NCBI GenBank assembly: GCA_012840225.1
Contig: DULU01000052.1
Coordinates: 20,483-84,482, forward strand
DNA: 64,000 nt
Direction: 5' to 3'
Origin: Bacillota bacterium
Lineage (GTDB): Bacteria; Bacillota; Limnochordia; DTU080
Below are positions 3,351-64,000 of this stretch, one piece after another. The notes beneath the pieces are model-generated. The model saw only the letters and a program-made list of their open reading frames with translations. It was not told the DNA's origin and searched no databases. The first letter of the stretch is position 1. Each line of letters starts with the position of its first letter. The position numbers were made by a program, and so were the translations under genes.

Positions 3351-5369
3351 GTGTGGTTCATAGCTCAAGCCTGTGCTCCTGATTCCTATCCCGATGCCAA
3401 AGGCGCTCCCGCTCCCGGCGGGCCGGCGGCGCCCACGAAGCCATTAAAGCCTCTCGGAGCTTCGCGAGCGCATCTATGTTGTCGCTGGGGGGTGGCACCA
3501 AAAGGCGCCTTGCCGCCCGCACCCGGGGCAACGCTCGCCACCAAGGCGCTGCCGCTCTGGTTGGCGGAGTTGCTGGCGAGGCGGCTTTTCGGCAGCCTGG
3601 CGGGTGAGCGGGTGCTCAGCTCCACCTTTTTTCCTTTATATAAAGTCTACTGGCGCCTGCGGGGAGCAGGCCTCGCCGCGGCCTGGGGCTTTAAGGATAC
3701 CTTATGGCAAGATAACCCATGGCAGGATACTCTCCGGCAGCAGGGAGCGACGCAGGAGCAGGATGTGGAGGTGGAGGTGGGAGCAGACAAAGCGGCGGCT
3801 GCCCCTCCAGCTGGGGCTTTGGCGGAGACGGTGCTCCGGGTCACCAGCGGCCGGTATTTATCTGTGAGCGAGATCAAGGCGGAGTTGCCTCGTGAGGAGC
3901 GGGCCGCTTTTCGGCAGGAGTATTTGGACGACCTGGTCCGGCGGGGATCTTTGCGCTTCATGGCGGCCGTAGGTCCGGGGGAGAGCGGCGATATAGAGTG
4001 CAGGCGCTGCGGCAGCCGCAGGCGTATCGCATTTTCCTGGTGCGCCCGCTGTGCCATAGCTTGTCCAGAATGCCCCGAATGCCGGGACATGGGCCGCATG
4101 CGGGGCTGTGATGCCTTATATACCGCGGCAGAGCCTCCGGCCCCGCCGGCCTTCCGGCAGGACACCACCCTGGCCGCCACACCTGCCGCACCGTCCGGCG
4201 TTACACTTGTCACACCTCTCCAGCCGGAGCTGCCGTTTGCCTTGTCCAAAGCCCAGGCTCAGGCAGCCGGGGAGCTGGCGGCGGCCTCTGCCGCCAGGCA
4301 ATCGCCGGTGCTGGTGTGGGCGGCTTGCGGGGCGGGGAAGACGGAAGTGGCCTTTCATGCCGTAGCGCGGGAACTGGAGAGCGGCGGGCGGGTGCTCGTC
4401 ACCGCGCCGCGGCGGGATGTGGTGATCGACCTCTACCATCGCTTGGAGGCCGCCTTTCCGGGCTGCCGGATTGGCGGTCTGTGGGGGGGAGGGCGCTTCC
4501 TTCCGGCAGCAGGGCCGTCGCCGCAACTGATTGTCGCCACCACGCATCAAGCCATGCGGCTCAGCGCTTCGTTCAGCCTGGTGATTCTCGATGAATGCGA
4601 TGCTTTTCCATATAATGTCACCCCCATGCTGCAGCGCACCATCGCCCGCCTGAGCGAAGGCGGCGTCTTCATCCAGATGACCGCCACCCCGGCTCTCTCC
4701 ACCCGGCGGCAGGTAGCGGCTTCCGGGCGCATCATTTATATCCCGGCCCGCCATCATGGACATCCTTTGCCGGTGCCGAGCCTGCACCTGGACAGGTCTC
4801 TCGCCTCCTGGCCGGGAGGAGGGGTAGAGGCAGGAGCAGGGGGCGAGGTTGGAAGATGGGGGGGCAGAGGGGGAAGCAGCCGTGAGGGCGCGGCCGGCGA
4901 TACGGGCCAGGTGCCTAAAGTGCTCGCTGAGGTGATAGGGGAGACTCTGGCCGGCGGCGGGCGGCTTTTGGTGTTCGTGCCCACCAGGGCAATGGTGGCT
5001 CCGGTAGCCCGCTCCTTGCAACAAAATTTTAACATCGAGGTGGCCGGGGTGCATTCCGCCTCGCCGGAGCGGGATCTGGTGCGGGAAAAGCTGCGGAGCA
5101 GGGAATTAGCCCTGGTGGTATGCACCACCATCTTCGAGCGAGGCCTGACCTTTCCGGGCGTAGATGTGGCCGTGCTTTTCGCCGATAACGAAGCGGTTTT
5201 CGACCGGGCGACGCTGGTGCAGATCGCCGGGCGTCCGGGACGCACCACCGCTTTTCCCGAAGGCCGGGTTTACTTCATCGCTGCCCGCAAAAGCCGGTCC
5301 ATGCTGGGCGCCGTCGAAGATATTCGTTATTTGAACCGCCTCGCCGGGGAACGGAAATTGCTGTTATGA
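3351..5369 (+). CDS. comFA: ComFA-like competence helicase (DEAD/DEAH-box, with Zn-finger); long, possibly over-extended N-terminus
   Basis: Cys4 zinc finger CRRCGSRRRIAFSWCARCAIACPECPEC followed by Walker A VLVWAACGAGKTEVAF and DExD-like ILDECDAFPY. Similar in order and motifs to B. subtilis ComFA (WAVCGAGKTEM...IIDEVDAFPY). It is followed by comFC. The true start is probably internal (GTG near 3765-3777). Confidence 0.65.
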   Translation: MWFIAQACAPDSYPDAKGAPAPGGPAAPTKPLKPLGASRAHLCCRWGVAPKGALPPAPGATLATKALPLWLAELLARRLFGSLAGERVLSSTFFPLYKVYWRLRGAGLAAAWGFKDTLWQDNPWQDTLRQQGATQEQDVEVEVGADKAAAAPPAGALAETVLRVTSGRYLSVSEIKAELPREERAAFRQEYLDDLVRRGSLRFMAAVGPGESGDIECRRCGSRRRIAFSWCARCAIACPECPECRDMGRMRGCDALYTAAEPPAPPAFRQDTTLAATPAAPSGVTLVTPLQPELPFALSKAQAQAAGELAAASAARQSPVLVWAACGAGKTEVAFHAVARELESGGRVLVTAPRRDVVIDLYHRLEAAFPGCRIGGLWGGGRFLPAAGPSPQLIVATTHQAMRLSASFSLVILDECDAFPYNVTPMLQRTIARLSEGGVFIQMTATPALSTRRQVAASGRIIYIPARHHGHPLPVPSLHLDRSLASWPGGGVEAGAGGEVGRWGGRGGSSREGAAGDTGQVPKVLAEVIGETLAGGGRLLVFVPTRAMVAPVARSLQQNFNIEVAGVHSASPERDLVREKLRSRELALVVCTTIFERGLTFPGVDVAVLFADNEAVFDRATLVQIAGRPGRTTAFPEGRVYFIAARKSRSMLGAVEDIRYLNRLAGERKLLL

Positions 5370-5458
5370 TCCCCGGAGCTTTTTCTTTTTTATGGCTTTT
5401 GCTATGATATGTGTGTATGGGCCAAGCTCGTGACGGGAACGATCGAAGGAGTTCGATA

Positions 5459-6292
5459 ATGTTCCAGAAGGAGAAGGTGCGACACCGTCTCCAGATCTAT
5501 CGTCACTTGACCGGTGGCCTGGCTAGGGTGAGAGAAGACTTTGGCGATCTTTTGTTTCCCCCGCCGGCCGGCTGCGGTTATTGCGGAAGCGAGCTTATGC
5601 CGCCCCTGATGCCTTGGTGGACACCTGAGAATGCAGTGGACCAAACTTTGTGCCGGCGGTGCCTGGAACAGGTGGTATTTACCTCCGGACCGGGATGCGC
5701 CCGCTGCGGCCGACCCGAGCAGGAGGACAGGCTCTGTGTGTTCTGCCGCAACGACATATGCCGAGTGAGCGGCGGAAGCGCTACCGTCTATGAAGGGATC
5801 ATACCTGAGCTGACGCGGCGCTTGAAATTTAAAGGCGCCAGGCAACTGGCGGCTGCACTGGGCCGGATGGCCGCCATCACCGGCATGAAGGTTGCGGCCG
5901 GATGGCCGGTGACGGCTGTTGTCCCGGTGCCCCTGCATCAGGAGCGACTAGCTGAGAGAGGTTATAATCAGGCCCAGCTGATTGCCGGCGAGGTGGCGAG
6001 ATGGCTGGGGCGCCCGCTCTGGTCCGATATTTTGCTCCGCACGAGGAATACTAAACCTCAGAGCGGTTTGGATATTGCCGATAGAGCGAAGAACATTGAA
6101 GGAGCCTTTGTCGCCGTTGATGTTAAAAATTTAAGCAGACGATCAATTCTTTTGGTGGATGATGTGCTGACCACGGGAGCCACTCTGACGGCGGCGGCTG
6201 CTGCCCTCTTGGTGGCCGGTGCCGGCAGCGTCAGGTTTGTCACCGCCAGTGTGACGGTGGCCCCACCTCAGCACTGGAAGGGAGATTATTGA
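5459..6292 (+). CDS. comFC: ComF family protein ComFC (phosphoribosyltransferase-like)
   Basis: N-terminal Cys-rich region and C-terminal PRTase motif ILLVDDVLTTGATL. RBS GAAGGAG lies 8 nt upstream of the ATG at 5459. Position immediately after comFA. Confidence 0.75.
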   Translation: MFQKEKVRHRLQIYRHLTGGLARVREDFGDLLFPPPAGCGYCGSELMPPLMPWWTPENAVDQTLCRRCLEQVVFTSGPGCARCGRPEQEDRLCVFCRNDICRVSGGSATVYEGIIPELTRRLKFKGARQLAAALGRMAAITGMKVAAGWPVTAVVPVPLHQERLAERGYNQAQLIAGEVARWLGRPLWSDILLRTRNTKPQSGLDIADRAKNIEGAFVAVDVKNLSRRSILLVDDVLTTGATLTAAAAALLVAGAGSVRFVTASVTVAPPQHWKGDY

Positions 6293-6449
6293 CCAGAGGC
6301 AGTGTAGTGTAATGGGACGGTAATTAGACACCTTACCGACCGGGGGGAAAGAACAGCCGGAAAGATACCGGCCAAAAAACACAGGGCGGCCCATCAGCCC
6401 GGCAGCCGGCCACCGGTAGCCAGGGTTGTGTTCAGGGAGGGAGAGCAGC

Positions 6450-6674
6450 ATGCTAGTTCTCACACGCAAGCGTGACGAAAGCATCATCATTGGTGACGAT
6501 ATAAAAATCACGGTAGTGGAAGTGCGCGGCGATCAGGTCAAAATCGGGGTGGAAGCGCCGCGGGTGATTCCTGTGCACAGGGAGGAAGTGTATCGGGAAA
6601 TTCAGGAGGAAAAGGAAAGAGCAGCCCAAATGCAGGAAGTCGTCGCCGAGGGAGAAAGCCGGCCCGAGATGTAG
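6450..6674 (+). CDS. csrA: Carbon storage regulator CsrA
   Basis: [48 protein letters not shown] is essentially the CsrA consensus. RBS GGAGGGAG lies upstream. Confidence 0.85.
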
Positions 6675-6697
6675 CAAATAAAAGAGTTTTCAGTCGT

Positions 6698-6750
6698 CCG
6701 GGCGCACTGGAGGCGGCCGGTGCGCCCCTTCGCCATGGCATTTCTTCTTT
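6698..6750 (+). terminator. Putative intrinsic terminator after csrA (GC hairpin followed by delayed T-rich stretch)
   Basis: Stem CGGGCGCAC...GTGCGCCC followed by cttcgccatggcatttcttcttttcc. Confidence 0.35.
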
Positions 6751-6756
6751 TCCAGC

Positions 6757-6785
6757 TTGCACAAATACCGCAGGCGCAGTATAAT
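6757..6785 (+). promoter_or_regulatory. Consensus sigma-A type promoter (TTGCAC-N17-TATAAT)
   Basis: -35 TTGCAC (6757-6762), a 17-nt spacer, and a perfect -10 TATAAT (6780-6785). It drives a ~370-nt untranslated region upstream of the zinc-ribbon gene. Confidence 0.55.
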
Positions 6786-7154
6786 AGGGTAGCCGTATTG
6801 CTCAGGTCTGTGGTTGAAAGTCGAAGCCAGCCGCAGGCAAAGCGACCCACGTAAGGCGACGGATAATCAGTCGCCGAGCATGGTGCGGCTTAGTGTAAGT
6901 CCTGCCCACCACTTCCCTTAGGCCTTTCTCCGATCCCCTCAGATTATTGGGTGGTATTGGGTGCCTTGGAAACCGGCAGCGCAGTAGATCTATCTATGTC
7001 ACAACAACATGAAGATCAAGGAAGTGGTGGAGAGAAGCCCGCCGATTGGCGAGGATTCCCGCAGGTGAGTGTGGGGGCAAAGACCAGGTCAGCTGGGCAA
7101 TAACGGTTATTCTTTTGCCGGTCGTCCATGCCGGGGAAGTGGGGGATTGGAGAA

Positions 7155-49624: not shown

Positions 49625-50626
49625 GGCGAGTTATTGCTGGGAATTGAAACAAGCTGTGATGAGACAGCGGCAGCGGTGGTGGCGGAGGGGCGCACCATAC
49701 TTTCCAATGTAGTGGCCTCGCAAATTGACCTGCACCAGAAATGGGGCGGGGTGGTGCCTGAAGTGGCGAGCAGGCAGCATGTGGAAGCCATCATGCCGGT
49801 GATCGACAAAGCACTGAAAGATGCCGGAACGACGCCGGACAAGCTGGCCGCGATAGCGGTCACCTGCGGTCCCGGTCTGGTGGGAAGCCTGCTGGTCGGA
49901 TTGTCGGCGGCCAAAGCCCTGGCGTTTAGCGCCGGGAAGCCGCTGATCGGTGTCAACCATATTGAAGGCCACATTTACGCCAATTTTCTGGCGCACCGGG
50001 AAGTGACGGCGCCTTTGGTCTGCCTGACCGTGTCGGGCGGGCATACCAATCTGCTATATATGCCGGAGCCGGGTGTATATAAGGTGATGGGGCGGACCCG
50101 TGACGATGCGGCCGGAGAAGCATTAGATAAAGTCGGGCGGGTGATGGGGCTCCCATATCCGGCCGGAGCGCATATCGACCGGCTGGCCAGGGAGGGGAAG
50201 CCGGGAGCGGTGCAGCTGCCGCGAGGGCTGCTCGAGGGTCTGGATTTCAGCTTCAGCGGGCTGAAGACCGCCGCCATCAATTACCTGCATAATGCCGCCC
50301 AGCGGCATGAGGAAGTGAATATGGCCGATTTTGCCGCCGGCCTGCAGGAGGCGGTGGTCGATGTGCTGGTGGCGAAGACCATGCATGCCGCCGAACAGGT
50401 CGGGGTGGATATCATCATCATGTCGGGCGGGGTGGCCGCCAATACCCGCCTGCGCCGGCGTTTGCGTGAGGAAGCTGAAAGCGCCGGCAAACGCCTTTTT
50501 TACCCCCCGGTGGAGCTTTGCACCGACAACGCCGCCATGATCGCCAGCGCCGGCTATTTTCGCTACCGGCGCGGGGAATACGCTGATCTAACCTTAAACG
50601 CCGAACCCTCCCTGCGGCTGGAATAA
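49616..50626 (+). CDS. tsaD: tRNA N6-adenosine threonylcarbamoyltransferase TsaD (Kae1/YgjD)
   Basis: LLLGIETSCDETAAAVV...HIEGH...SGGVAAN motifs. The start lies within a tandem repeat, so the exact initiation codon is ambiguous (GTG 49607 / ATG 49616 / ATG 49619). Confidence 0.9.
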   Translation: MMSGELLLGIETSCDETAAAVVAEGRTILSNVVASQIDLHQKWGGVVPEVASRQHVEAIMPVIDKALKDAGTTPDKLAAIAVTCGPGLVGSLLVGLSAAKALAFSAGKPLIGVNHIEGHIYANFLAHREVTAPLVCLTVSGGHTNLLYMPEPGVYKVMGRTRDDAAGEALDKVGRVMGLPYPAGAHIDRLAREGKPGAVQLPRGLLEGLDFSFSGLKTAAINYLHNAAQRHEEVNMADFAAGLQEAVVDVLVAKTMHAAEQVGVDIIIMSGGVAANTRLRRRLREEAESAGKRLFYPPVELCTDNAAMIASAGYFRYRRGEYADLTLNAEPSLRLE

Positions 50627-50635
50627 TCCGGAAAT

Positions 50636-50700
50636 CCCTCCTAACCTCCTAATCTCCTAATCTCCTGACCTCCTAACCTCCTGACCTCCTGACTTCCTGT
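50636..50700 (+). repeat. Tandem heptamer array (CCTCCTRA / TCTCCTAA, ~9 units) downstream of tsaD
   Basis: cctcctaacctcctaatctcctaatctcctgacctcctaacctcctgacctcctgacttcct. The complement is an array of AGGAG(G) Shine-Dalgarno-like units. Confidence 0.7.
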
Positions 50701-50955
50701 CCCCCTACCCTTCTGCCCTCCAGCCCTGCCCTACCCACCTCCCCGGAGCTGAGAATATATAAATTATTCTAACCGTCTTCTTCCTTAAAGAAGGAATAGG
50801 CTACCGTCTGTGGAAAAACCAACAAAGTCCACCCAAACGGTCAGTGATCAGAGTCGAAGGCTGTCTCATCGGGAAACATGGGGCCTTTTATCTGGACTGG
50901 GCTTGAGAATATAGGGAATAACGCAAGTTTCAATATTTTATGAGGGGGAACGGAG

Positions 50956-52146
50956 ATGCCGTCTCGCGCTGAACGTATGTCTCTCTTGGGAACGGAAAAT
51001 GCCTTCGAGGTGTTGGCCGAGGTGAAGAAGCTTGAGGCCGCCGGGCGCCATATCATCAGTTTCGCCATCGGCGAGCCTGATTTCGATACGCCGGTCAATA
51101 TTAAGGAGGCGGGCATAAAGGCCATCCGGGAGGGATACACCCATTACAACCCGTCGGCCGGGATTATGGAGCTGCGGCAAGCTATTGCCCGTTATATAGC
51201 CAAGACCCGCCATATCCATGTCGATCCGGAAGAAGTGGTGGTGACCCCGGGGGCTAAGCCGATCATATTTCATGGGATCCTGGCGACTGTAAATCCGGGC
51301 GAAGAGGTAATCTATCCCAATCCGGGTTTCCCCATCTATGAATCGGTGATCAGGTTTGTGGGAGCCAAGCCGGTGCCCCTCGCTTTGCGGGAGGACCGCG
51401 AGTTCTCCTTCGATGTGGATGAGCTGCGCAGCAAGATCAATCCCAATACCAAGTTGATCATCCTCAACTCGCCGCAAAACCCGACGGGAGGCTGCCTGTC
51501 GCAGAGCGATCTGGAAGCGGTGGCGGAGATGGCCCTGCGCTATGATTGCTGGGTGCTCTCCGATGAGGTATACTCCCGGATGGTGTTTGACGGGGAATTC
51601 TACAGCATCGCCACCATTCCGGACATGAAGGAGCGGACCATCATCCTCGACGGCTTCTCCAAGACCTACGCCATGACCGGATGGCGCATCGGCTTCGGGG
51701 TGATGCCCAAGTCGTTGGCTATCGATGTAGCTCGCCTCGAGACCAACTGTGAGTCGTGTACGGCCACTTTCACCCAGATAGCCGGAATTGAAGCTTTGGA
51801 AGGCCCCCAGGACGCTTCGGCCGCCATGGTCGCCGAATTCAAAGAGCGGCGGCGCCTGATTGTGGACGGTCTGAACGATATCCCCGGCTTCAAATGCCTG
51901 ATGCCTAAGGGAGCGTTTTATGTATTTCCCAATGTCTCCGAGGCCTGTCGGCGTTTGGGGTTGAGGGGAGCGAAACAGTTACAAGAAAAGCTTCTTTATG
52001 AAGGCAATGTAGCTGTGCTACCGCGCTCCTCCTTCGGTTCCAGAAACGAGGGCGAGACCGAGGAATATCTGCGGTTTTCTTACGCCACCTCCAGGGAAGC
52101 CATCGTCGAGGGCTTGCAGCGGATTAAAGAAGTGGTAGCGAAGTAG
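50956..52146 (+). CDS. Pyridoxal-phosphate-dependent aminotransferase, class I/II (AspAT-like)
   Basis: Class I fold motifs including GFSKTYAMTGWRIG (PLP-Lys) and N-terminal LGTENAFEVL. RBS GAGGGGGAA lies upstream. Confidence 0.8.
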   Translation: MPSRAERMSLLGTENAFEVLAEVKKLEAAGRHIISFAIGEPDFDTPVNIKEAGIKAIREGYTHYNPSAGIMELRQAIARYIAKTRHIHVDPEEVVVTPGAKPIIFHGILATVNPGEEVIYPNPGFPIYESVIRFVGAKPVPLALREDREFSFDVDELRSKINPNTKLIILNSPQNPTGGCLSQSDLEAVAEMALRYDCWVLSDEVYSRMVFDGEFYSIATIPDMKERTIILDGFSKTYAMTGWRIGFGVMPKSLAIDVARLETNCESCTATFTQIAGIEALEGPQDASAAMVAEFKERRRLIVDGLNDIPGFKCLMPKGAFYVFPNVSEACRRLGLRGAKQLQEKLLYEGNVAVLPRSSFGSRNEGETEEYLRFSYATSREAIVEGLQRIKEVVAK

Positions 52147-55071: not shown

Positions 55072-55115
55072 CCGGCAGGCTTCGCTTTCGCTTTCGCTTC
55101 ACCTTTTATCTTGGT

Positions 55116-56537
55116 TTATTCGTTCTTCGCCTTCAGTATCTTCTCACGGTAATTCGTCATCTGCTTCTCCAGATAATTAACAAGCAAATTGTAGCCGGTG
55201 AGATCCCGCAAAGGCGCCCATGGAATAGCCTGCTTTATCTTCTCCGTTATTCTGGCCAGGCTCAAGTCCTCCCACCTGAAGATAAGGAGCGTTATATTTC
55301 TTTCATTGCAGATCTTCTGCTTGGTCTTATCCAGCCTCTTCTGCTTGGCTACTGCCGATTGATTATATAGATCGGTCGCCCGATAATGCTGCTCTCCGTT
55401 GAACTCGCAGGCCACATTCTGCTTTTCATAATAGCGGTCGAAGTGCATCTGCTCATGAGTATATGGATTCTTTAAAAAATCGGGTGTGGCATTGTCGACG
55501 CCGTTATCCCACTCCAGGATCAGATTTAGGGCCTCCCGCATCAGAGCTTCGCCACGGAATTTGGCCCGGTAGAGATTGTGCTCTGCCTTCAGCATCTTGA
55601 TCCTTACCGGGTTGCTGATATAAAACAGCTTATCTTTCGTCTTTTTCATGGTGCGGATGTCGATCCACTCTTCATCGCGCAGTTTGAACAAAGCTCGGCG
55701 TACCGTCTTAACATTCAAGTAGAGCATCTTGGCAATACTGGTATATGTATAGGTGGCTTCACGGGAGCTGCGCTTATATTTCGGCAAGGTTTGCAAGGTG
55801 CCATATATCAATCTGGCCTGCGCACCTAGACGCGTATCATTGACCAAATCAACCGGTATATAAACCTTCTTGCAATAATTGTAACGCGGCGTGAAAATCG
55901 TGGCGGCTAAAGCCTGGCGGCGCTCCCGAGCCTGAGCCTGGATTTGGGCCTGGATCTGAGCTAACTGTGCCTGGAACTGCTCCTCGTTCAGTACCTGAGC
56001 CTGATTTATTTCCTGAGCTTGAGCCTGTGTTTGGAGGCCTTGATTGCCGACCTGTGGTGGGAATGGCGGGAGCTGCGTCTGTGCTTGATGCCAGGCATTG
56101 ACCTGACCTTGGATGGGAGGTTGGCTTTTCATTTGGGGATCATTTTGTATCGGGTAGAATGCTTGAGGGGGAGTGGGATGAGAAGGAGTATGGATTGACT
56201 GCGTATGGGTTGACTGCACCGGCGGTTTGATCCAGATCTCCGGCTGCACCAACCACTTGTGGATATAGAGCTGGGAAAGAGCACAGCATACAGTAGGCTT
56301 GGACAACCCGATTCGCTCAGCTATCCTTGCCGGGCAATAGAGCTGATCAGGATCAATGCGGGCATCGTTGACATCCAAGGCTAAAGCCATCCAAACCAAT
56401 TTGGCCGAATTGGACAAATCTGGCTCCAGCAGGAGGTCTTTTGGCACCCACACCACTTTATTAATATTGATGATTTTGCTTGCCATAAAGCAACCACGCT
56501 CCGATTCCCCGGCATGGCTGCGCGCAAGCGTTCTCAT
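55116..56537 (-). CDS. Foreign-looking protein: two tandem winged-HTH domains, Gln-rich linker, C-terminal DUF559/Vsr-like (restriction-endonuclease-fold) domain
   Basis: Two homologous HTH modules (residues ~20-95 and ~215-300). Q/A-rich coiled linker QAQAQEINQAQVLNEEQFQAQLAQIQAQIQAQARE. C-terminal CEFNGEQHY...D...K...L...G..LLIFRWEDL resembles the E-x-D-G-x-Q-H...R(F/I) pattern of DUF559/Vsr-like nucleases. Local GC is ~45-50% versus ~62% in the flanks. Confidence 0.6.
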   Translation of the reverse strand: MRTLARSHAGESERGCFMASKIININKVVWVPKDLLLEPDLSNSAKLVWMALALDVNDARIDPDQLYCPARIAERIGLSKPTVCCALSQLYIHKWLVQPEIWIKPPVQSTHTQSIHTPSHPTPPQAFYPIQNDPQMKSQPPIQGQVNAWHQAQTQLPPFPPQVGNQGLQTQAQAQEINQAQVLNEEQFQAQLAQIQAQIQAQARERRQALAATIFTPRYNYCKKVYIPVDLVNDTRLGAQARLIYGTLQTLPKYKRSSREATYTYTSIAKMLYLNVKTVRRALFKLRDEEWIDIRTMKKTKDKLFYISNPVRIKMLKAEHNLYRAKFRGEALMREALNLILEWDNGVDNATPDFLKNPYTHEQMHFDRYYEKQNVACEFNGEQHYRATDLYNQSAVAKQKRLDKTKQKICNERNITLLIFRWEDLSLARITEKIKQAIPWAPLRDLTGYNLLVNYLEKQMTNYREKILKAKNE

Positions 56538-56810
56538 TCTGCTTCTCCACTCTGGCTGTGAATCCTGCCGGCGTGAAATAAAAATTATAAAGGTCGTATA
56601 TAAAACAGATGCAATATTAATTGGAATATAATTACAGCACGTAATGTAATAATTACATGATGTAACAGGCTGTCGATGATGGCCACTATATAAAAACCTC
56701 CAGTTCAGACCGTATCAGTCCACGGATATGACCATCGTTTCCCTGCTCTCTGTATAAAAGTATGAATCGGTTTGGGCGTACCGATGAGAGGTTAGAGTTA
56801 AACTGGATAA

Positions 56811-57320
56811 CGATTCGGAATAGTGGCATTACGAGGTGGGAAATAACAATAGGCCGGATCTGGCAAAAGGCCAGCTCAGAAAATCCGGGCTTCGGGGTGA
56901 AGGTATTTGTTTTCTCCCCCTCAGAAGTCAGACTAATCCGGATGGTTCGGATGAGTGCCGGACGACAAATACGGCCGGGGATTGGGAATAGTGGCATTAC
57001 GAGGCGGGAAAAAACAATAGGCCGGATCTGGCGAAAGGCCAGCTCAGGAAATCCGGGTTTCGGGGAGAGGGTATTTGTTTTCTCCCCCTCAGAAGTCAGG
57101 CAAATCAGGAAGGTGTGGATGAGTGCCAGGTGGCAAAAATGGCAGACGATTGGGAATAGAGGCATTGCGGGGCGAAAAAAAACAATGGGCCGGATCTGGC
57201 AAAAGGCCAGCTCAGGAAGACCGGGTCTGTGGGTGAGGGTATTTGTTTTCTTCTCTTTGGATGTCAGGCAAATCAGAAAATGGTGCATAAATGATGGGGA
57301 GCGGGAGGCACAAGTGGATA
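56811..57320 (+). repeat. Three tandem copies of a ~169-bp non-coding repeat, each containing the hairpin CTGGCAAAAGGCCAG
   Basis: Units begin at ~56811, ~56981 and ~57149 (GATTGGGAATAGTGGCATTACGAGG...GGCCGGATCTGGCAAAAGGCCAGCTCAG...GGTATTTGTTTTCTCCCCCTCAGAAGTCAG) with ~85-90% identity between copies. ORFs on both strands across it are repeat artefacts. Confidence 0.85.
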
Positions 57321-57478
57321 TAGACCAAGCGAGAATTCGGGTATGTATTTTCTAGCATGGGTTTTATGGTGGGAAAGAATGCTAAACTGTTAGAAAGAAT
57401 GCACAGCTGCGGACCGGCTAAAGGTTCCGGTCAGAGGTTAAGGCGGAAAGTGGAGTAGATGCAGCTCTGGCTGTGGTT

Positions 57479-58288
57479 TCAGTTTTCGGCATCCTGGCTG
57501 GATGGACGGCGCCATTCATAGCGGTAACTGGGCAAGAGATCCTTCACGAAGGAATCTACCGCTTGCTCCAGGACGCCGGCTCTCACCTGGGGAACGGCAG
57601 TCCGTCTTAATTTGGGTAGGAGAGATTCCGGAGGTGGGGAGTCGTAGTGCCAGGTCAGTACTTCCAATTCGCTTTCTTCGTTGCTTTCGCTAACCTTTTT
57701 GGACCAGATTATTTCTCCCGTACCGGCATTGATGATTCTGACCTGGACCGTCAAGTGGATGTTGGTATTCAGGCTTGAATACCAGTTGGGAGATCTTCCT
57801 TCAGAAGTGGACCCGATGCGGTAGGGAACCTGTACATATATATCTTCCATATAATAGGTCACTTCGCCGGTGATCAAAACATCGCAGGAGAGAGCTTTAC
57901 CTAATCTAACCGCTGTTTCGGGACTGGTAGCCTCAACTGGGGTGATACCTAATTTAGCTAGGACGGCGGCGGTTGAAGCTCTGTCCTGGACGGTAAAATA
58001 CCCTGAGGAGGCGGCTACCTGGCCGAGCAAATCAGCGAATTCTATAGCAATCCCCGGATCATTGGTGGCGTTCACAAAATCGAGGATGGCGATGTTATTT
58101 ATGTCGCCTATGGGAGCTAACGGAGGGACGAGTACTCTGACTCGCTCTCCCATACATCCGGAGAGAAGCACCGCTAAACCACCTATTAAGCATAAGTAGA
58201 GGAAAAGCTGCCGGCGGTGTCCTGTAGAATTAAATGATCCGAAATACTCGGCCCAAAAATGCTCGGCCATGCGTTTTGCTTTATGCAT
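57479..58288 (-). CDS. Lipoprotein with TolB-N/LpoB/CsgG-like fold
   Basis: Lipobox LLSGC after a hydrophobic h-region. GDINNIAILDFVN...LITGEV pattern is reminiscent of LpoB/CsgG-type periplasmic lipoproteins. Confidence 0.5.
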   Translation of the reverse strand: MHKAKRMAEHFWAEYFGSFNSTGHRRQLFLYLCLIGGLAVLLSGCMGERVRVLVPPLAPIGDINNIAILDFVNATNDPGIAIEFADLLGQVAASSGYFTVQDRASTAAVLAKLGITPVEATSPETAVRLGKALSCDVLITGEVTYYMEDIYVQVPYRIGSTSEGRSPNWYSSLNTNIHLTVQVRIINAGTGEIIWSKKVSESNEESELEVLTWHYDSPPPESLLPKLRRTAVPQVRAGVLEQAVDSFVKDLLPSYRYEWRRPSSQDAEN

Positions 58289-59033: not shown

Positions 59034-59900
59034 TTGATCGATGTAGCCTTAGTCCCTGGTGAAATTGTGGAGAAGAAGGTTTCGGCATCACAGGTGGTGG
59101 TGGTAATCGATGTGTTGCGCGCCAGCACTACCATCATCACCGCCCTTGAGGCTGGAGCGAGCAGTGTAATACCGGTGGTGGAAACGGAAGAGGCTATAAG
59201 TTTGAGCGCCTCTTTGGGAGAACAAACTGTATTGGGGGGCGAGCGGCAAGGCCGGCGCCTCTTGGGTTTTCATTTGGGTAATTCACCGCTGGAATATACG
59301 CCGGAGATTGTGCGGGGGCGGGTGGTGGTCATGACCACCACCAATGGTACCTTTGCTTTAAAGAAGGTGAAAGGGGCGCACGCTATTGCCGTAGCTGCTT
59401 TCCGCAATGCGGCGGCGGTGGCGGCGATGCTGAGAGCGCATCTATCCCAAGGCCGGCAGGTGTTATTGGTATGCGCCGGTACAGAACGCCGGTTTACGCT
59501 TGAAGATGCCTGCTTAGCCGGATTGCTGGTTGAATTGGTTACCGGTGGCAGTGAGCCCGGGGCGAGTGCATTGGTGAGTGGAAAGGAGTGCGAGAGGGCG
59601 GACGAAAAGGAGAGCGAGTGTGAGACGGAGAGCGAGTGTGAGATGGAGAGCGGAATAAGAGAAATATCCACCAGAGAAATATCCGCCTCGACGACCGGCC
59701 TCACCGACAGCGCCTGGGCGGCCTTGTCCTTATGGCGGGCGGTGGAGCGTAATCCCTATAATGCCGTCACCAGATCCAGGCATGGGCAACGCCTCATCGA
59801 GATGGGATTTGGGGCCGATGTGGAGTTTTGTGCTCGCTTGTCGGATTGCGACGTGATACCCATACTGCAGGACGGCCGCCTGATCAAATTAGGTGGATAG
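59034..59900 (+). CDS. comB: 2-phosphosulfolactate phosphatase family protein (ComB-like) with Cys/Glu-rich low-complexity insertion
   Basis: VVVIDVLRASTTIITAL...MTTTNGT...LVCAG motifs of the ComB family. Insertion ECERADEKESECETESECEMESGIREISTREIS near the C-terminus. TTG start. Confidence 0.6.
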   Translation: MIDVALVPGEIVEKKVSASQVVVVIDVLRASTTIITALEAGASSVIPVVETEEAISLSASLGEQTVLGGERQGRRLLGFHLGNSPLEYTPEIVRGRVVVMTTTNGTFALKKVKGAHAIAVAAFRNAAAVAAMLRAHLSQGRQVLLVCAGTERRFTLEDACLAGLLVELVTGGSEPGASALVSGKECERADEKESECETESECEMESGIREISTREISASTTGLTDSAWAALSLWRAVERNPYNAVTRSRHGQRLIEMGFGADVEFCARLSDCDVIPILQDGRLIKLGG

Positions 59901-62346: not shown

Positions 62347-62430
62347 GTTTTCTGCTTATCTGCTTATCTGCTTATCTGCGTACCTGCTTATCTGTGTACC
62401 TGCTCATCAGCGCATCTACTCATCACTCAT
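62347..62430 (+). repeat. Degenerate tandem octamer array (CTGCTTAT-like, ~10 units) between convergent groEL and the minus-strand OM-like gene
   Basis: ctgcttatctgcttatctgcttatctgcgtacctgcttatctgtgtacctgctcatcagcgcatctactcatcactcatctacttat. Confidence 0.6.
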
Positions 62431-63761
62431 CTACTTATAGGCATATGGTACTTTATATCCACGAAGCCGATGGCGGTCACTTTGTTGTATCCTTTTCTGT
62501 TCTTGGCATTCTGCACCGGACCCACCCCGAAGCGGGCCGAGAGCTCGACATTGGGGAGGAGTTGGTAGGTGGCGGAGGTATAGATCAGCTGTGCCGATTC
62601 CACCACCCCGGTCAGGAAGGAATTGTCTTTGGTCTTTTCGTAGCCGTCTTTTTCCCAGGTGTCGCCTATGCGGCCCTCGCCATGGCGCCGGATGATCAAA
62701 CCGACATCGGTAAAGCCAAAGATGGGGCGGGCAAATTGGTAGTTTAGATGCAGTTCGTCGCCGTCCGGGCCATATGGAAAGCCGAGGAGAAAGTCATGAT
62801 GCACATAATGACCGATGTCTTTTTGAAATGAATAGGTGTAATTATTCACCCGGACATATTGCAGGTTCAGTTTTCCAAAACGCCAAAGCGGCAGTTCCGC
62901 CCGGGCCAGGCCGGCTACCTGAAATATTTGATATGTACCGAACCAATGCGGCATGTCGTCCACCATCAGCTCGGCACCGATCAGCGCTCCGCCTTTGGTG
63001 CGGTACATGCCTTGCACGAAAGCGTAGACATTTACATCATTATTATTTATAAACCCGGCGTCCAGTCCCACCCATTGGGTCCAGTAATAAGGCCAGGGCA
63101 GAAAGGAGACCAGGTTTACGGCAAATTTGCGATTACATACCGCCGTTTCGCCGATGGCGGCGGTGGCTCCGCCGACGGTCAAGGTCAGGCGATGGGCCAA
63201 TAGATAACGATCATCTCCTGAAAGCCGGCCGATGATCTTGTCGACGGTGGCCGGACCACGCCTGAAGGAGTATTGCAGTTGGTCGTAGCCGGGGGCGTGT
63301 GGCGACAAAACGACGGTATCTCCCTGCCAGAGACTCCAGTTGTTGGCCAAGCGTCCGACTGAGACTTTTAACTTGGCGTTGTAGGCCAATTCGGTGGCTG
63401 TGGAAAGGTAGGCGGCCGAGATGCCGTTATATTCGTTAAGCTTGGCAAAGCGGCGGCTGACCTTCAGCGCCAGGCGCCAGGGAGGATCAGGGAGGGAGGT
63501 GGAGAGGGTGGAGGAGGCTGAGCCCGGTGACGGAGCGATCTGGAAGGTTACATCCTGGCGCATGGAGTCCATGAAGGTGTCGGGCGAGAGCACCTTGATG
63601 GAAACCTCGCTCTCGATGCCGCCGGCCTCACTTGCACCGCCGGCACTGGCTAAGGCGCAGGGCTTGGCGGCCATGGGGATGGGCATAATCATATGTAAAT
63701 GCGATAGGAGTATGGGGGTGCAGATGATGCAGATCAGGTACTTTACATATGGGCGTTTCAC
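62427..63761 (-). CDS. Secreted beta-rich protein, putative outer-membrane protein (Wzi/capsule-assembly-like?)
   Basis: 444-aa minus-strand ORF with N-terminal hydrophobic signal region, abundant alternating aromatic/hydrophobic beta-strand-like segments (GTYQIFQVAGLARAEL, ELHLNYQFARPIFGFTDVGLII). GTG start with AGGAGG upstream on the minus strand. Family assignment is tentative. Confidence 0.4.
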   Translation of the reverse strand: MKRPYVKYLICIICTPILLSHLHMIMPIPMAAKPCALASAGGASEAGGIESEVSIKVLSPDTFMDSMRQDVTFQIAPSPGSASSTLSTSLPDPPWRLALKVSRRFAKLNEYNGISAAYLSTATELAYNAKLKVSVGRLANNWSLWQGDTVVLSPHAPGYDQLQYSFRRGPATVDKIIGRLSGDDRYLLAHRLTLTVGGATAAIGETAVCNRKFAVNLVSFLPWPYYWTQWVGLDAGFINNNDVNVYAFVQGMYRTKGGALIGAELMVDDMPHWFGTYQIFQVAGLARAELPLWRFGKLNLQYVRVNNYTYSFQKDIGHYVHHDFLLGFPYGPDGDELHLNYQFARPIFGFTDVGLIIRRHGEGRIGDTWEKDGYEKTKDNSFLTGVVESAQLIYTSATYQLLPNVELSARFGVGPVQNAKNRKGYNKVTAIGFVDIKYHMPISR

Positions 63762-63819: not shown

Positions 63820-63955
63820 ATAAGTATTCGGTATGGAGATATGAGATCCTGTAGCCAGTAGCCTGTAGCAGGTAGCCAGAAGCCAGTAGCCGGTAGCGTT
63901 GGGGGAGGTGGCATGGGAGTTGGCATGGGAGTTGGCATGTGAGGTGCATGGGAGG
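63820..63955 (+). repeat. Two adjacent short tandem repeat arrays (GTAGCC[A/T/G] heptamers; GGCATGGGAGKT 12-mers) upstream of the minus-strand gene start
   Basis: gtagccagtagcctgtagcaggtagccagaagccagtagccggtagcg followed by ggcatgggagttggcatgggagttggcatgtgaggtgcatgggaggggacatgtgaggtggcatgggaggg. Confidence 0.6.
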
Positions 63956-64000
63956 GGACATGTGAGGTGGCATGGGAGGGCGACAAGTTTCGGTTAAGCT

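Follow-up and report, generated by a model that had tools for sequence, protein, structure and literature searches.

The DNA analysed here, called the window throughout, is a stretch of 64,000 nucleotides from a Bacillota bacterium of the Limnochordia (contig DULU01000052.1, positions 20,483 to 84,482 of the forward strand). A tandem repeat array with a period of 168 bp lies in it, in a 941-bp gap between two genes of the minus strand, one encoding a CsgG-like lipoprotein (57479-58288) and the other a protein of 473 amino acids (55116-56537) in which winged-helix domains are joined to a nuclease domain of the homing-endonuclease type. In the syntenic loci L217 and L218 the CsgG-like gene and the DeoR gene at the far side are 6 bp apart, compared to 2,407 bp in the window, and the segment 55072-57478 was therefore recognized as an insertion. 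The order of the genes from hisD to tsaE was kept in the relative genome with the empty site, where the CsgG-like protein was 53% identical. At 48.9%, the GC content of the segment was below the 58.2% of the window. A search of its surroundings gave neither terminal inverted repeats nor a target duplication. That the array, an AT-rich operator region and the 473-aa gene form one inserted, compositionally foreign, single-gene module is firmly supported, and the module is apparently selfish DNA. A first-pass annotation of the letters had suggested a link between the array and the adjacent helix-turn-helix protein, and this link was borne out by the shared insertion and by the arrays carried by paralogs and distant homologs. 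The long-range covarying inverted repeat, the homing-endonuclease-type domain and the status of the module as an insertion and compositional outlier had been missed.

Tandem Repeats Finder reported the array at 56810-57276 with 2.8 copies, 85% matches, 0% indels and a score of 647, and it was the only long-period array in the window. The three tandem repeats described earlier were thereby confirmed, and a gapless alignment of three 168-bp units (56810-56977, 56978-57145 and 57146-57313) gave a mean column identity of 88%. Units 1 and 2 differed at 23 of 168 positions. Units 2 and 3 differed at 21 of the first 131 positions and the homology of unit 3 was lost beyond these, so the array ends near 57276-57300. 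The start first given, 56811, held (56810), and the end first given, 57320, lies in the diverged part of unit 3 and had to be moved. Among the blocks said to be shared by the units, the 28-mer GGCCGGATCTGGCAAAAGGCCAGCTCAG was found in all three (0, 1 and 0 mismatches) and was otherwise absent from the 64 kb, where none would be expected by chance, whereas the 30-mer GGTATTTGTTTTCTCCCCCTCAGAAGTCAG was exact in units 1 and 2 only and GATTGGGAATAGTGGCATTACGAGG in unit 2 only. No sub-period shorter than 168 bp was found inside the unit. The independent ENA assembly L001 contained the same three units in an identical 941-bp intergenic region. Four further assemblies broke about 130-250 bp from the CsgG-like gene, three of the four inside unit 3, which is the usual effect of a repeat on short-read assemblers.

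The array is bracketed by two 17-nt stretches, 56778-56794 (GTACCGATGAGAGGTTA) and 57424-57440 (GTTCCGGTCAGAGGTTA), with a direct match of 82%. Each stretch coincides in part with the 3' arm of a small hairpin whose loop is 8 nt long. Their likeness may reflect a duplicated terminator region, a scar left when the array arose, or chance.

The period equals 56 codons, and open reading frames (ORFs) of 197 amino acids on the plus strand and 200 amino acids on the minus strand consequently run through the array. They had been regarded as spurious, and no coding signal was observed in them. Substitutions between units were spread evenly over the codon positions in both frames (8/10/5, 7/6/8 and 9/7/10), and the products of the two ORFs had no match in Pfam or NCBIfam. 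No gene was called over the array in L001 or in the paralog locus L006, and the homologous array of L006 has a period of 265 bp, which is not divisible by three. A protein-coding gene with internal repeats was rejected on these grounds; the test comprised the substitution pattern, the frame in relatives and Pfam/NCBIfam, and included no database search of the ORF products. A search of the whole window against Rfam 15 at the gathering threshold gave a raiA RNA at 6797-7101 as the sole match, with none in the array, and two chance-level matches were all that was obtained over 56400-57600 at E values up to 10. That the array is real and non-coding is firmly supported.

The dominant structure of the unit is a long-range inverted repeat of about 17 bp that covaries and encloses the small CTGGC/GCCAG hairpin; this hairpin, pointed out in the first reading, was present in every fold. 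About 110 nt of the unit could be aligned between lineages. The remainder was unrelated, and the last third, the spacer part, was variable. In seven units from three lineages the 17 arm pairs were 93% paired, versus 51-75% when the partner was slid, and seven of the pairs were altered on both sides. The observed pairing measures were reached by only 0-3 of 500 shuffles. The A-run and T-run in the middle of the arms were invariant. When 69 sources (the window and 68 loci) were searched with a covariance model of the unit core, the model matched its own training lineage only and added none to the three lineages that carry the covariation. Between the arms lies the 12-nt motif AAAAGSCCAGCT, the sole sequence block retained across all four paralog lineages in a motif scan of all loci. 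Read from the sequences, its pairing partner is an upstream CTGGC in the window and a downstream GCTGG in L006, and because the partner varies in this way between lineages the internal structure of the core is not conserved. The gapped pattern AATANT-N-AAAAA-N-AAAAGSCCAGCT was used in a scan of metagenome DNA, but it was too loose, and only chance matches were present among the matches listed (checked with nhmmer).

The AT-rich region between the array and the gene contains the only two TTAC-N5-GTAA sites within the window, TTACAGCACGTAA and TTACATGATGTAA. A perfect TATAAT was found on the minus strand at 56589-56584, 47 nt upstream of the ATG of the 473-aa gene, and the region is presumed to be the promoter and operator of the gene. 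The palindrome block was conserved in the paralog loci L006 and L007, and equivalent palindromes were present in L008. No DnaA box was found in the AT-rich region.

The AlphaFold model of the 473-aa protein (pLDDT 81.9) consists of a first winged helix, a disordered linker, a 44-residue helix, a second winged helix and a C-terminal alpha/beta domain. Both winged-helix domains resemble those of iteron-binding initiators, and the model superposes on Pi bound to iteron DNA. In PHROGs, residues 225-310 matched 'replication initiation protein' families (E = 7e-6) and residues 353-439 matched 'homing endonuclease' and 'intron encoded nuclease' families (E about 1e-9 to 1e-10). Pfam gave weak matches only, to DUF2726 and DUF559, the latter marginal and in 1 of 14 members (E = 0.0085). 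D367, E378, G381, H384, D403 and K406 were invariant in 20 homologs, and the nuclease thus looks intact. The family is small, with 20 clusters among 5.8 billion. No relative was found in 72,556 plasmids by tblastn and no full-length relative in phage or IMG/VR viral collections, where relatives have the nuclease domain alone. PADLOC gave no match for the protein, and family searches gave no transposase, HUH or other known single-strand transposase or Rep domain in it. Proteins of Actinobacteria in which an N-terminal winged helix is joined to a Vsr-like nuclease (DUF559) often occur in several copies; to our knowledge, no repeat arrays are associated with them.

Samples with the window locus also hold three paralogs, P0003, P0004 and P0005, at unrelated chromosomal sites, and these were 49-75% identical to the 473-aa protein over the half that aligns. 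The same order of array, AT-rich palindrome region and gene was found in the loci L006, L007 and L008. Units within one array were more alike than units of different arrays, which suggests that arrays expand or homogenise locally. The single unit of L008 adjoins a 494-aa ORF (L008 155-1639) whose product we take, by eye, to be an IS21-family transposase (IstA). The paralog genes of L006 (about 4797-6786) and L007 (about 630-2372) appear to be far longer than the called P0003 and P0004. Their upstream parts encode the N-terminal winged helix and a very long, low-complexity linker rich in Q and P, built in L006 of 18-bp repeats (5688-5889). Spurious opposite-strand gene calls cover these linker regions, and the length of the linker differs widely among the paralogs.

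More distant homologs carried arrays as well. In L010, where the protein is 30% identical, three diverged units of about 390 bp have the same architecture, GGCGAAAAAGTGGGC ... GCCCAGAGCTGGGC ... CATTTTTC. The arrays of L184 and L185 contain GTGCAAAC-N3-GTTGGCAC palindromes within 42-bp sub-repeats, and those of L150 and L203 have arms built on a common TGCACAT; all four are plainly made of what look like operator sites. Direct repeats of at least 35 bp were present near the gene in 21 of 53 homolog loci, compared to 9 of 80 control segments of the same loci (40% versus 11%). The unit sequences were lineage-specific. In other lineages the array could lie upstream or downstream of the gene, and in L164 and L198 direct repeats flanked the gene on both sides. 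In a scan of one genome per species the full-length architecture occurred only in Limnochordia, Symbiobacteriaceae, Thermaerobacter, Fermentithermobacillaceae and unclassified metagenome-assembled genomes (MAGs) of Bacillota, usually in several copies per genome. The long-read Limnochordia MAG SBF912LR0HQ0069 contained at least seven copies, 93-95% identical, of a homologous element of 1.9-2.0 kb (L139-L142, L144, L149 and L165), with 2-4.6 tandem 94-bp units downstream of the gene and the same 38-nt hairpin motif, in direct orientation, at both ends. The recurrence of the combination of gene and repeat across a bacterial class, as judged from these comparisons, is firmly supported. In three of the copies (L140, L142 and L165), the sequence just past the left-hand hairpin reappears in degenerate form past the right-hand array, which hints at tandem or nested elements.

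Table 1. Features of the inserted module, with window positions, and of the corresponding regions of three paralog loci.
Feature	Position	Strand	Description and source
Whole inserted segment, 2,407 bp	55072-57478	.	Between DeoR stop (55071) and CsgG-like stop (57479); empty site in L217 and L218; low GC
473-aa gene	55116-56537	-	Winged helix 1, disordered Q/P-rich linker, 44-residue helix, winged helix 2 (HTH_36-like), Vsr/EDxHD-type nuclease domain (about aa 347-472)
AT-rich region between array and gene	56576-56700	.	GC 28%; palindromes TTACAGCACGTAA (56632-56644) and TTACATGATGTAA (56653-56665); direct-repeat, palindrome and GC scans
Palindrome block, sequence			TTACANNNNGTAATGTNNNNNTTACATNATGTAA
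Repeat unit 1	56810-56977	+	168 bp; conserved core 56826-56935; Tandem Repeats Finder, alignment, covariance-model match 114 bits
Repeat unit 2	56978-57145	+	168 bp; conserved core 56994-57103; Tandem Repeats Finder, alignment, covariance-model match 119 bits
Repeat unit 3, partial	57146-57276	+	Core 57162-57271 retained, spacer part diverged or lost; Tandem Repeats Finder, alignment, covariance-model match 110 bits
5' arm of long-range inverted repeat, unit 2	57001-57018	+	GAGGCGGGAAAAAACAAT; folds, RNAalifold, pair counts; in units 1 and 3 at -168 and +168
Conserved 12-nt motif between arms	57033-57044, also 56865-56876 and 57201-57212	+	AAAAGSCCAGCT; motif scan of all loci
3' arm of long-range inverted repeat, unit 2	57073-57090	+	ATTTGTTTTCTCCCCCTC; folds, RNAalifold, pair counts
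Stricter unit pattern			GGCCGNATNTNGNAAAAGSCCAGCTCAG
L006, upstream of gene			Conserved AT-rich block with two TTACATTATGTAA palindromes, then 2.4 copies of 265-bp unit
L007, upstream of gene			Palindromes and disrupted unit at contig end
L008, upstream of gene			Equivalent palindromes and one unit, beside putative IS21-type transposase gene

It is firmly supported that the array is the cognate partner of the winged-helix/homing-type nuclease gene. What the array does for the protein is a more tentative matter, and a double-stranded DNA binding or target array is favoured, with a probability of roughly 0.4. This reading is preferred because the protein has an initiator-like fold, the periods are helically phased and arrays of other lineages are operator-like; because the units lack transcription signals and the plus strand has poor folding statistics; and because covarying inverted arms are also predicted by a symmetric dimer site. 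The period of the window array, 168 bp, corresponds to 16.0 helical turns. Over the family the array periods were near whole turns, with a mean distance of 0.155 turn compared to 0.246 turn for random periods (P about 0.002).

In the mechanism that we infer, binding, dimerisation, the role of the central motif and nuclease activity are all predictions. The 473-aa protein would probably dimerise through its long helix and bind the two TTAC-N5-GTAA palindromes at its own promoter, controlling its own expression. It would also bind each 168-bp unit as duplex DNA, with the arms GAGGCGGGAAAAAAC and GTTTTCTCCCCCTC, about 72 bp apart, as half-sites and the central AAAAGSCCAGCT placed where the nuclease domain would sit. 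The period would keep successive sites on one face of the helix, as in iterons and centromere-like arrays. Such an array may serve as a recognition, docking or target platform. By this means the nuclease could be sequestered, or the end of the element itself marked. Copy number would shift by unequal recombination, as the variable copy numbers suggest.

Several observations weigh against a duplex DNA array. A unit as long as 168 bp, with its arms separated by 72 bp, is very unlike the iterons and operators characterised so far. No significant motif common to the units and the promoter palindromes was found, the three 7-mers that they have in common being about the number expected. Only about 40% of the homolog loci show repeats; many of these loci come from short-read MAGs, which break or collapse repeats. 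The helical-phase test was devised after the data had been seen, and some of the arrays included in it may be coding. Finally, all 17 of the non-Watson-Crick 'paired' cells were G.U on the plus strand and none was A.C, which favours single-strand folding over symmetric duplex sites. This asymmetry is partly confounded by the G-richness of the plus strand, and a mutational skew could yield the same.

The wobble pattern is better accommodated by a tandem array of structured RNAs, the main rival reading, which is considered possible but unlikely. Transcripts of the plus strand, of single units or of the whole array and divergent from the nuclease gene, would give stem-closed RNAs of about 110 nt with a large loop showing AAAAGSCCAGCU, to be bound or processed by the protein; they might act as a regulator or antidote, like repeat-RNA antitoxins, or as a guide-like cofactor. 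The compensatory changes in the 17-pair closing helix point the same way. So do the failure of RNAalifold to recover the helix on the minus strand and the G-richness of the arrays on the plus strand beyond that of the flanks, a feature seen also in L010, where the skew of the flanks is opposite. Terminator-like hairpins were enriched on the same strand of L010 (8 versus 1.2 expected), and an A/T-rich '-10-like' box followed by GCA could be read upstream of the core in every lineage. Yet no canonical sigma-70-type promoter, and no terminator above the level of shuffles, was found inside the units of the window, L006 or L008. The plus strand of the unit folded no better than shuffles (z = 0.07), while the minus strand reached z = -2.3. 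The covarying outer helix extends beyond the T-run, and an RNA of this kind therefore cannot have its 3' end there. The change of pairing partner of the conserved motif between paralogs, the occurrence of upstream as well as downstream arrays in other lineages and the lack of an Rfam family argue against it further. Structured non-coding RNAs and binding sites for the HTH protein had both been proposed from the first reading, and both stay the leading explanations.

An extension of the RNA explanation is that the module represents a novel type of mobile element, found in Limnochordia and Symbiobacteriaceae, whose nuclease works with RNAs of the array, each stem-closed unit of about 110 nt being a cofactor, guide or antidote. 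This was judged improbable. If true, the nuclease would have an RNA partner in a system with no relation to CRISPR, OMEGA, bridge RNA or type III toxin-antitoxin systems.

Single-stranded DNA hairpins that serve the movement or copying of the element, like the subterminal hairpins of IS200/IS605 or rolling-circle origins, also seem rather improbable. The nuclease domain would nick the loop motif, and the tandem copies would be by-products of initiation and termination. Such a role would suit an inserted module with strand-asymmetric pairing and a protein that joins an initiator-like fold to a nuclease, and it would suit the Limnochordia MAG elements, with the hairpin at both ends and tandem units at one, and the genes of L164 and L198, flanked on both sides by direct repeats. 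However, the other end of the window module has no unit or hairpin, the stop of the gene and the stop of DeoR being 45 bp apart, and neither a target duplication nor a terminal repeat was found. Vsr/EDxHD nucleases are known for acting on duplex DNA, and the protein lacks an HUH or other known single-strand transposase/Rep domain.

The array may also be a neutral by-product, a satellite without function that was amplified locally by slippage or unequal crossing-over at a hairpin-prone sequence. Variable copy numbers (1, 2.4 and 2.8, and 2.1-4.6 in the Limnochordia MAG), the greater resemblance of units within an array, the freedom of the last third of the unit to vary and the absence of repeats from about 60% of homolog loci would be expected of a satellite. 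It was nevertheless thought very unlikely, as the core of about 110 nt is conserved among paralogs whose spacers cannot be aligned, the arms covary, and arrays recur beside genes of only about 30% protein identity with the enrichment given above. Were the array neutral, the finding would reduce to a new multi-copy family of nuclease genes.

The remaining candidates were rejected. A CRISPR array, already doubted in the first-pass annotation, was dismissed since the units adjoin, the spacer third is itself repeated and no cas domains are encoded nearby, compared to repeats of 23-55 nt with unique spacers. A plasmid replication origin does not agree with the chromosomal syntenic site and its empty allele, the lack of plasmid relatives and the missing DnaA box. 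The end of a known insertion sequence (IS) or transposon was rejected because no transposase domain, terminal repeats or target duplication were found at 55072-57478; the array does lie at one end of an inserted element, but that element is none of the known ones. A type III toxin-antitoxin system was rejected on the unit of 168 bp versus about 34-40 nt, the Vsr-like fold and the absence of a PADLOC match.

Type III toxin-antitoxin systems (ToxIN, CptIN and TenpIN) do share with the module a tandem non-coding repeat directly upstream of a nuclease gene and the nature of a small multi-copy module. Their units are about 36 nt long, however, and a terminator, instead of a promoter and operator, lies between their array and gene. 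In the present module, furthermore, the strand favoured in folding is antisense to the gene, and the protein is not an endoribonuclease of the ToxN/AbiQ type. IS200/IS605 elements with omega RNA and IS110 elements with bridge RNA are likewise compact, with one nuclease or recombinase gene, a structured non-coding end and no terminal inverted repeats. Unlike them, the module has no HUH, RuvC/DEDD or TnpB domain, its structured segment is a tandem array, and it is known from DNA sequence alone.

By analogy, the module would work most like an iteron/operator arrangement fused to a free-standing homing-endonuclease gene. Iteron plasmid modules (Pi of R6K, RepA of pPS10 or pSK41) also have two winged-helix domains in the protein, helically phased direct repeats by the gene, an AT-rich stretch and inverted repeats at the gene's own promoter. 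Their units are 17-22 bp long, compared to 168 bp here and 265 and about 390 bp in relatives, and the 168-bp units contain long-range inverted arms in addition. The module further differs in its nuclease domain, in being a 2.4-kb chromosomal insertion with several copies per genome, and in having no plasmid relatives or DnaA boxes. Of the features of an iteron origin, a tandem winged-helix initiator was thus found, whereas short repeats and an autonomous replicon with host-initiator boxes were not. The term iteron array, offered in the first reading, does not apply in the strict sense, as the unit measures 168 bp and not about 20 bp, the context is chromosomal and plasmids hold no relative.

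With the homing endonucleases of the EDxHD/Vsr-like type (I-Bth0305I; PMC3239194) and the free-standing homing endonuclease genes of phages, the module shares the insertion of a single gene between conserved host genes with presence/absence polymorphism. A Vsr-like fold with conserved acidic and histidine residues and the presence or absence of the gene at a conserved site, which mark these enzymes, were both observed, and the nuclease domain by itself is, like homing endonuclease genes, common in viral contigs. Unlike homing endonucleases, the gene lies outside an intron or intein, is fused to an initiator-like pair of winged helices, is accompanied by long tandem repeats and an operator, and is multi-copy in bacterial chromosomes without a full-length relative in phage or viral collections.

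In literature searches no paper on tandem repeats in Limnochordia was found, and among the titles listed none described such a module of nuclease and repeats. A selfish nuclease gene with an array of repeats for recognition by its protein is the favoured picture, with a modest chance of something categorically new. If this reading is true, the modules would be an undescribed family of small selfish elements, from a branch of Bacillota that has received little study and abounds in biogas reactors and compost. Such a family would couple an initiator-like DNA-binding module and a homing-type nuclease to long, fast-evolving, lineage-specific arrays. This would explain the assembly breaks at these loci and provide natural pairs of protein and repeat with co-evolving specificity. 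A new array-based anchoring or control of a nuclease gene, or a new partnership of nuclease and RNA, could be revealed.

Other repeats were noted in the window. An octamer array, CCTCCTAA/CCTCCTGA, with about 10.6 copies, occupies 50637-50721, between an ORF ending at 50626 and an aminotransferase gene starting at 50956, and its unit contains CCTCC, which is like an anti-Shine-Dalgarno sequence. Tandem repeats of short period (units of 8, 7, 12 and 14 bp) are located at 62351-62435 and 63848-63979, around and after a 444-aa ORF of the minus strand (62427-63761) without a Pfam match. An 18-bp repeat with 2.4 copies (59609-59652) lies inside a gene for a ComB-like 2-phosphosulpholactate phosphatase and encodes an acidic insertion rich in E, S and C, which is missing from the L217 ortholog (253 amino acids versus 288). 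The raiA RNA (Rfam RF03072) lies on the plus strand and was matched over the full model length with 143 bits, which fits the Bacillota origin of the DNA.

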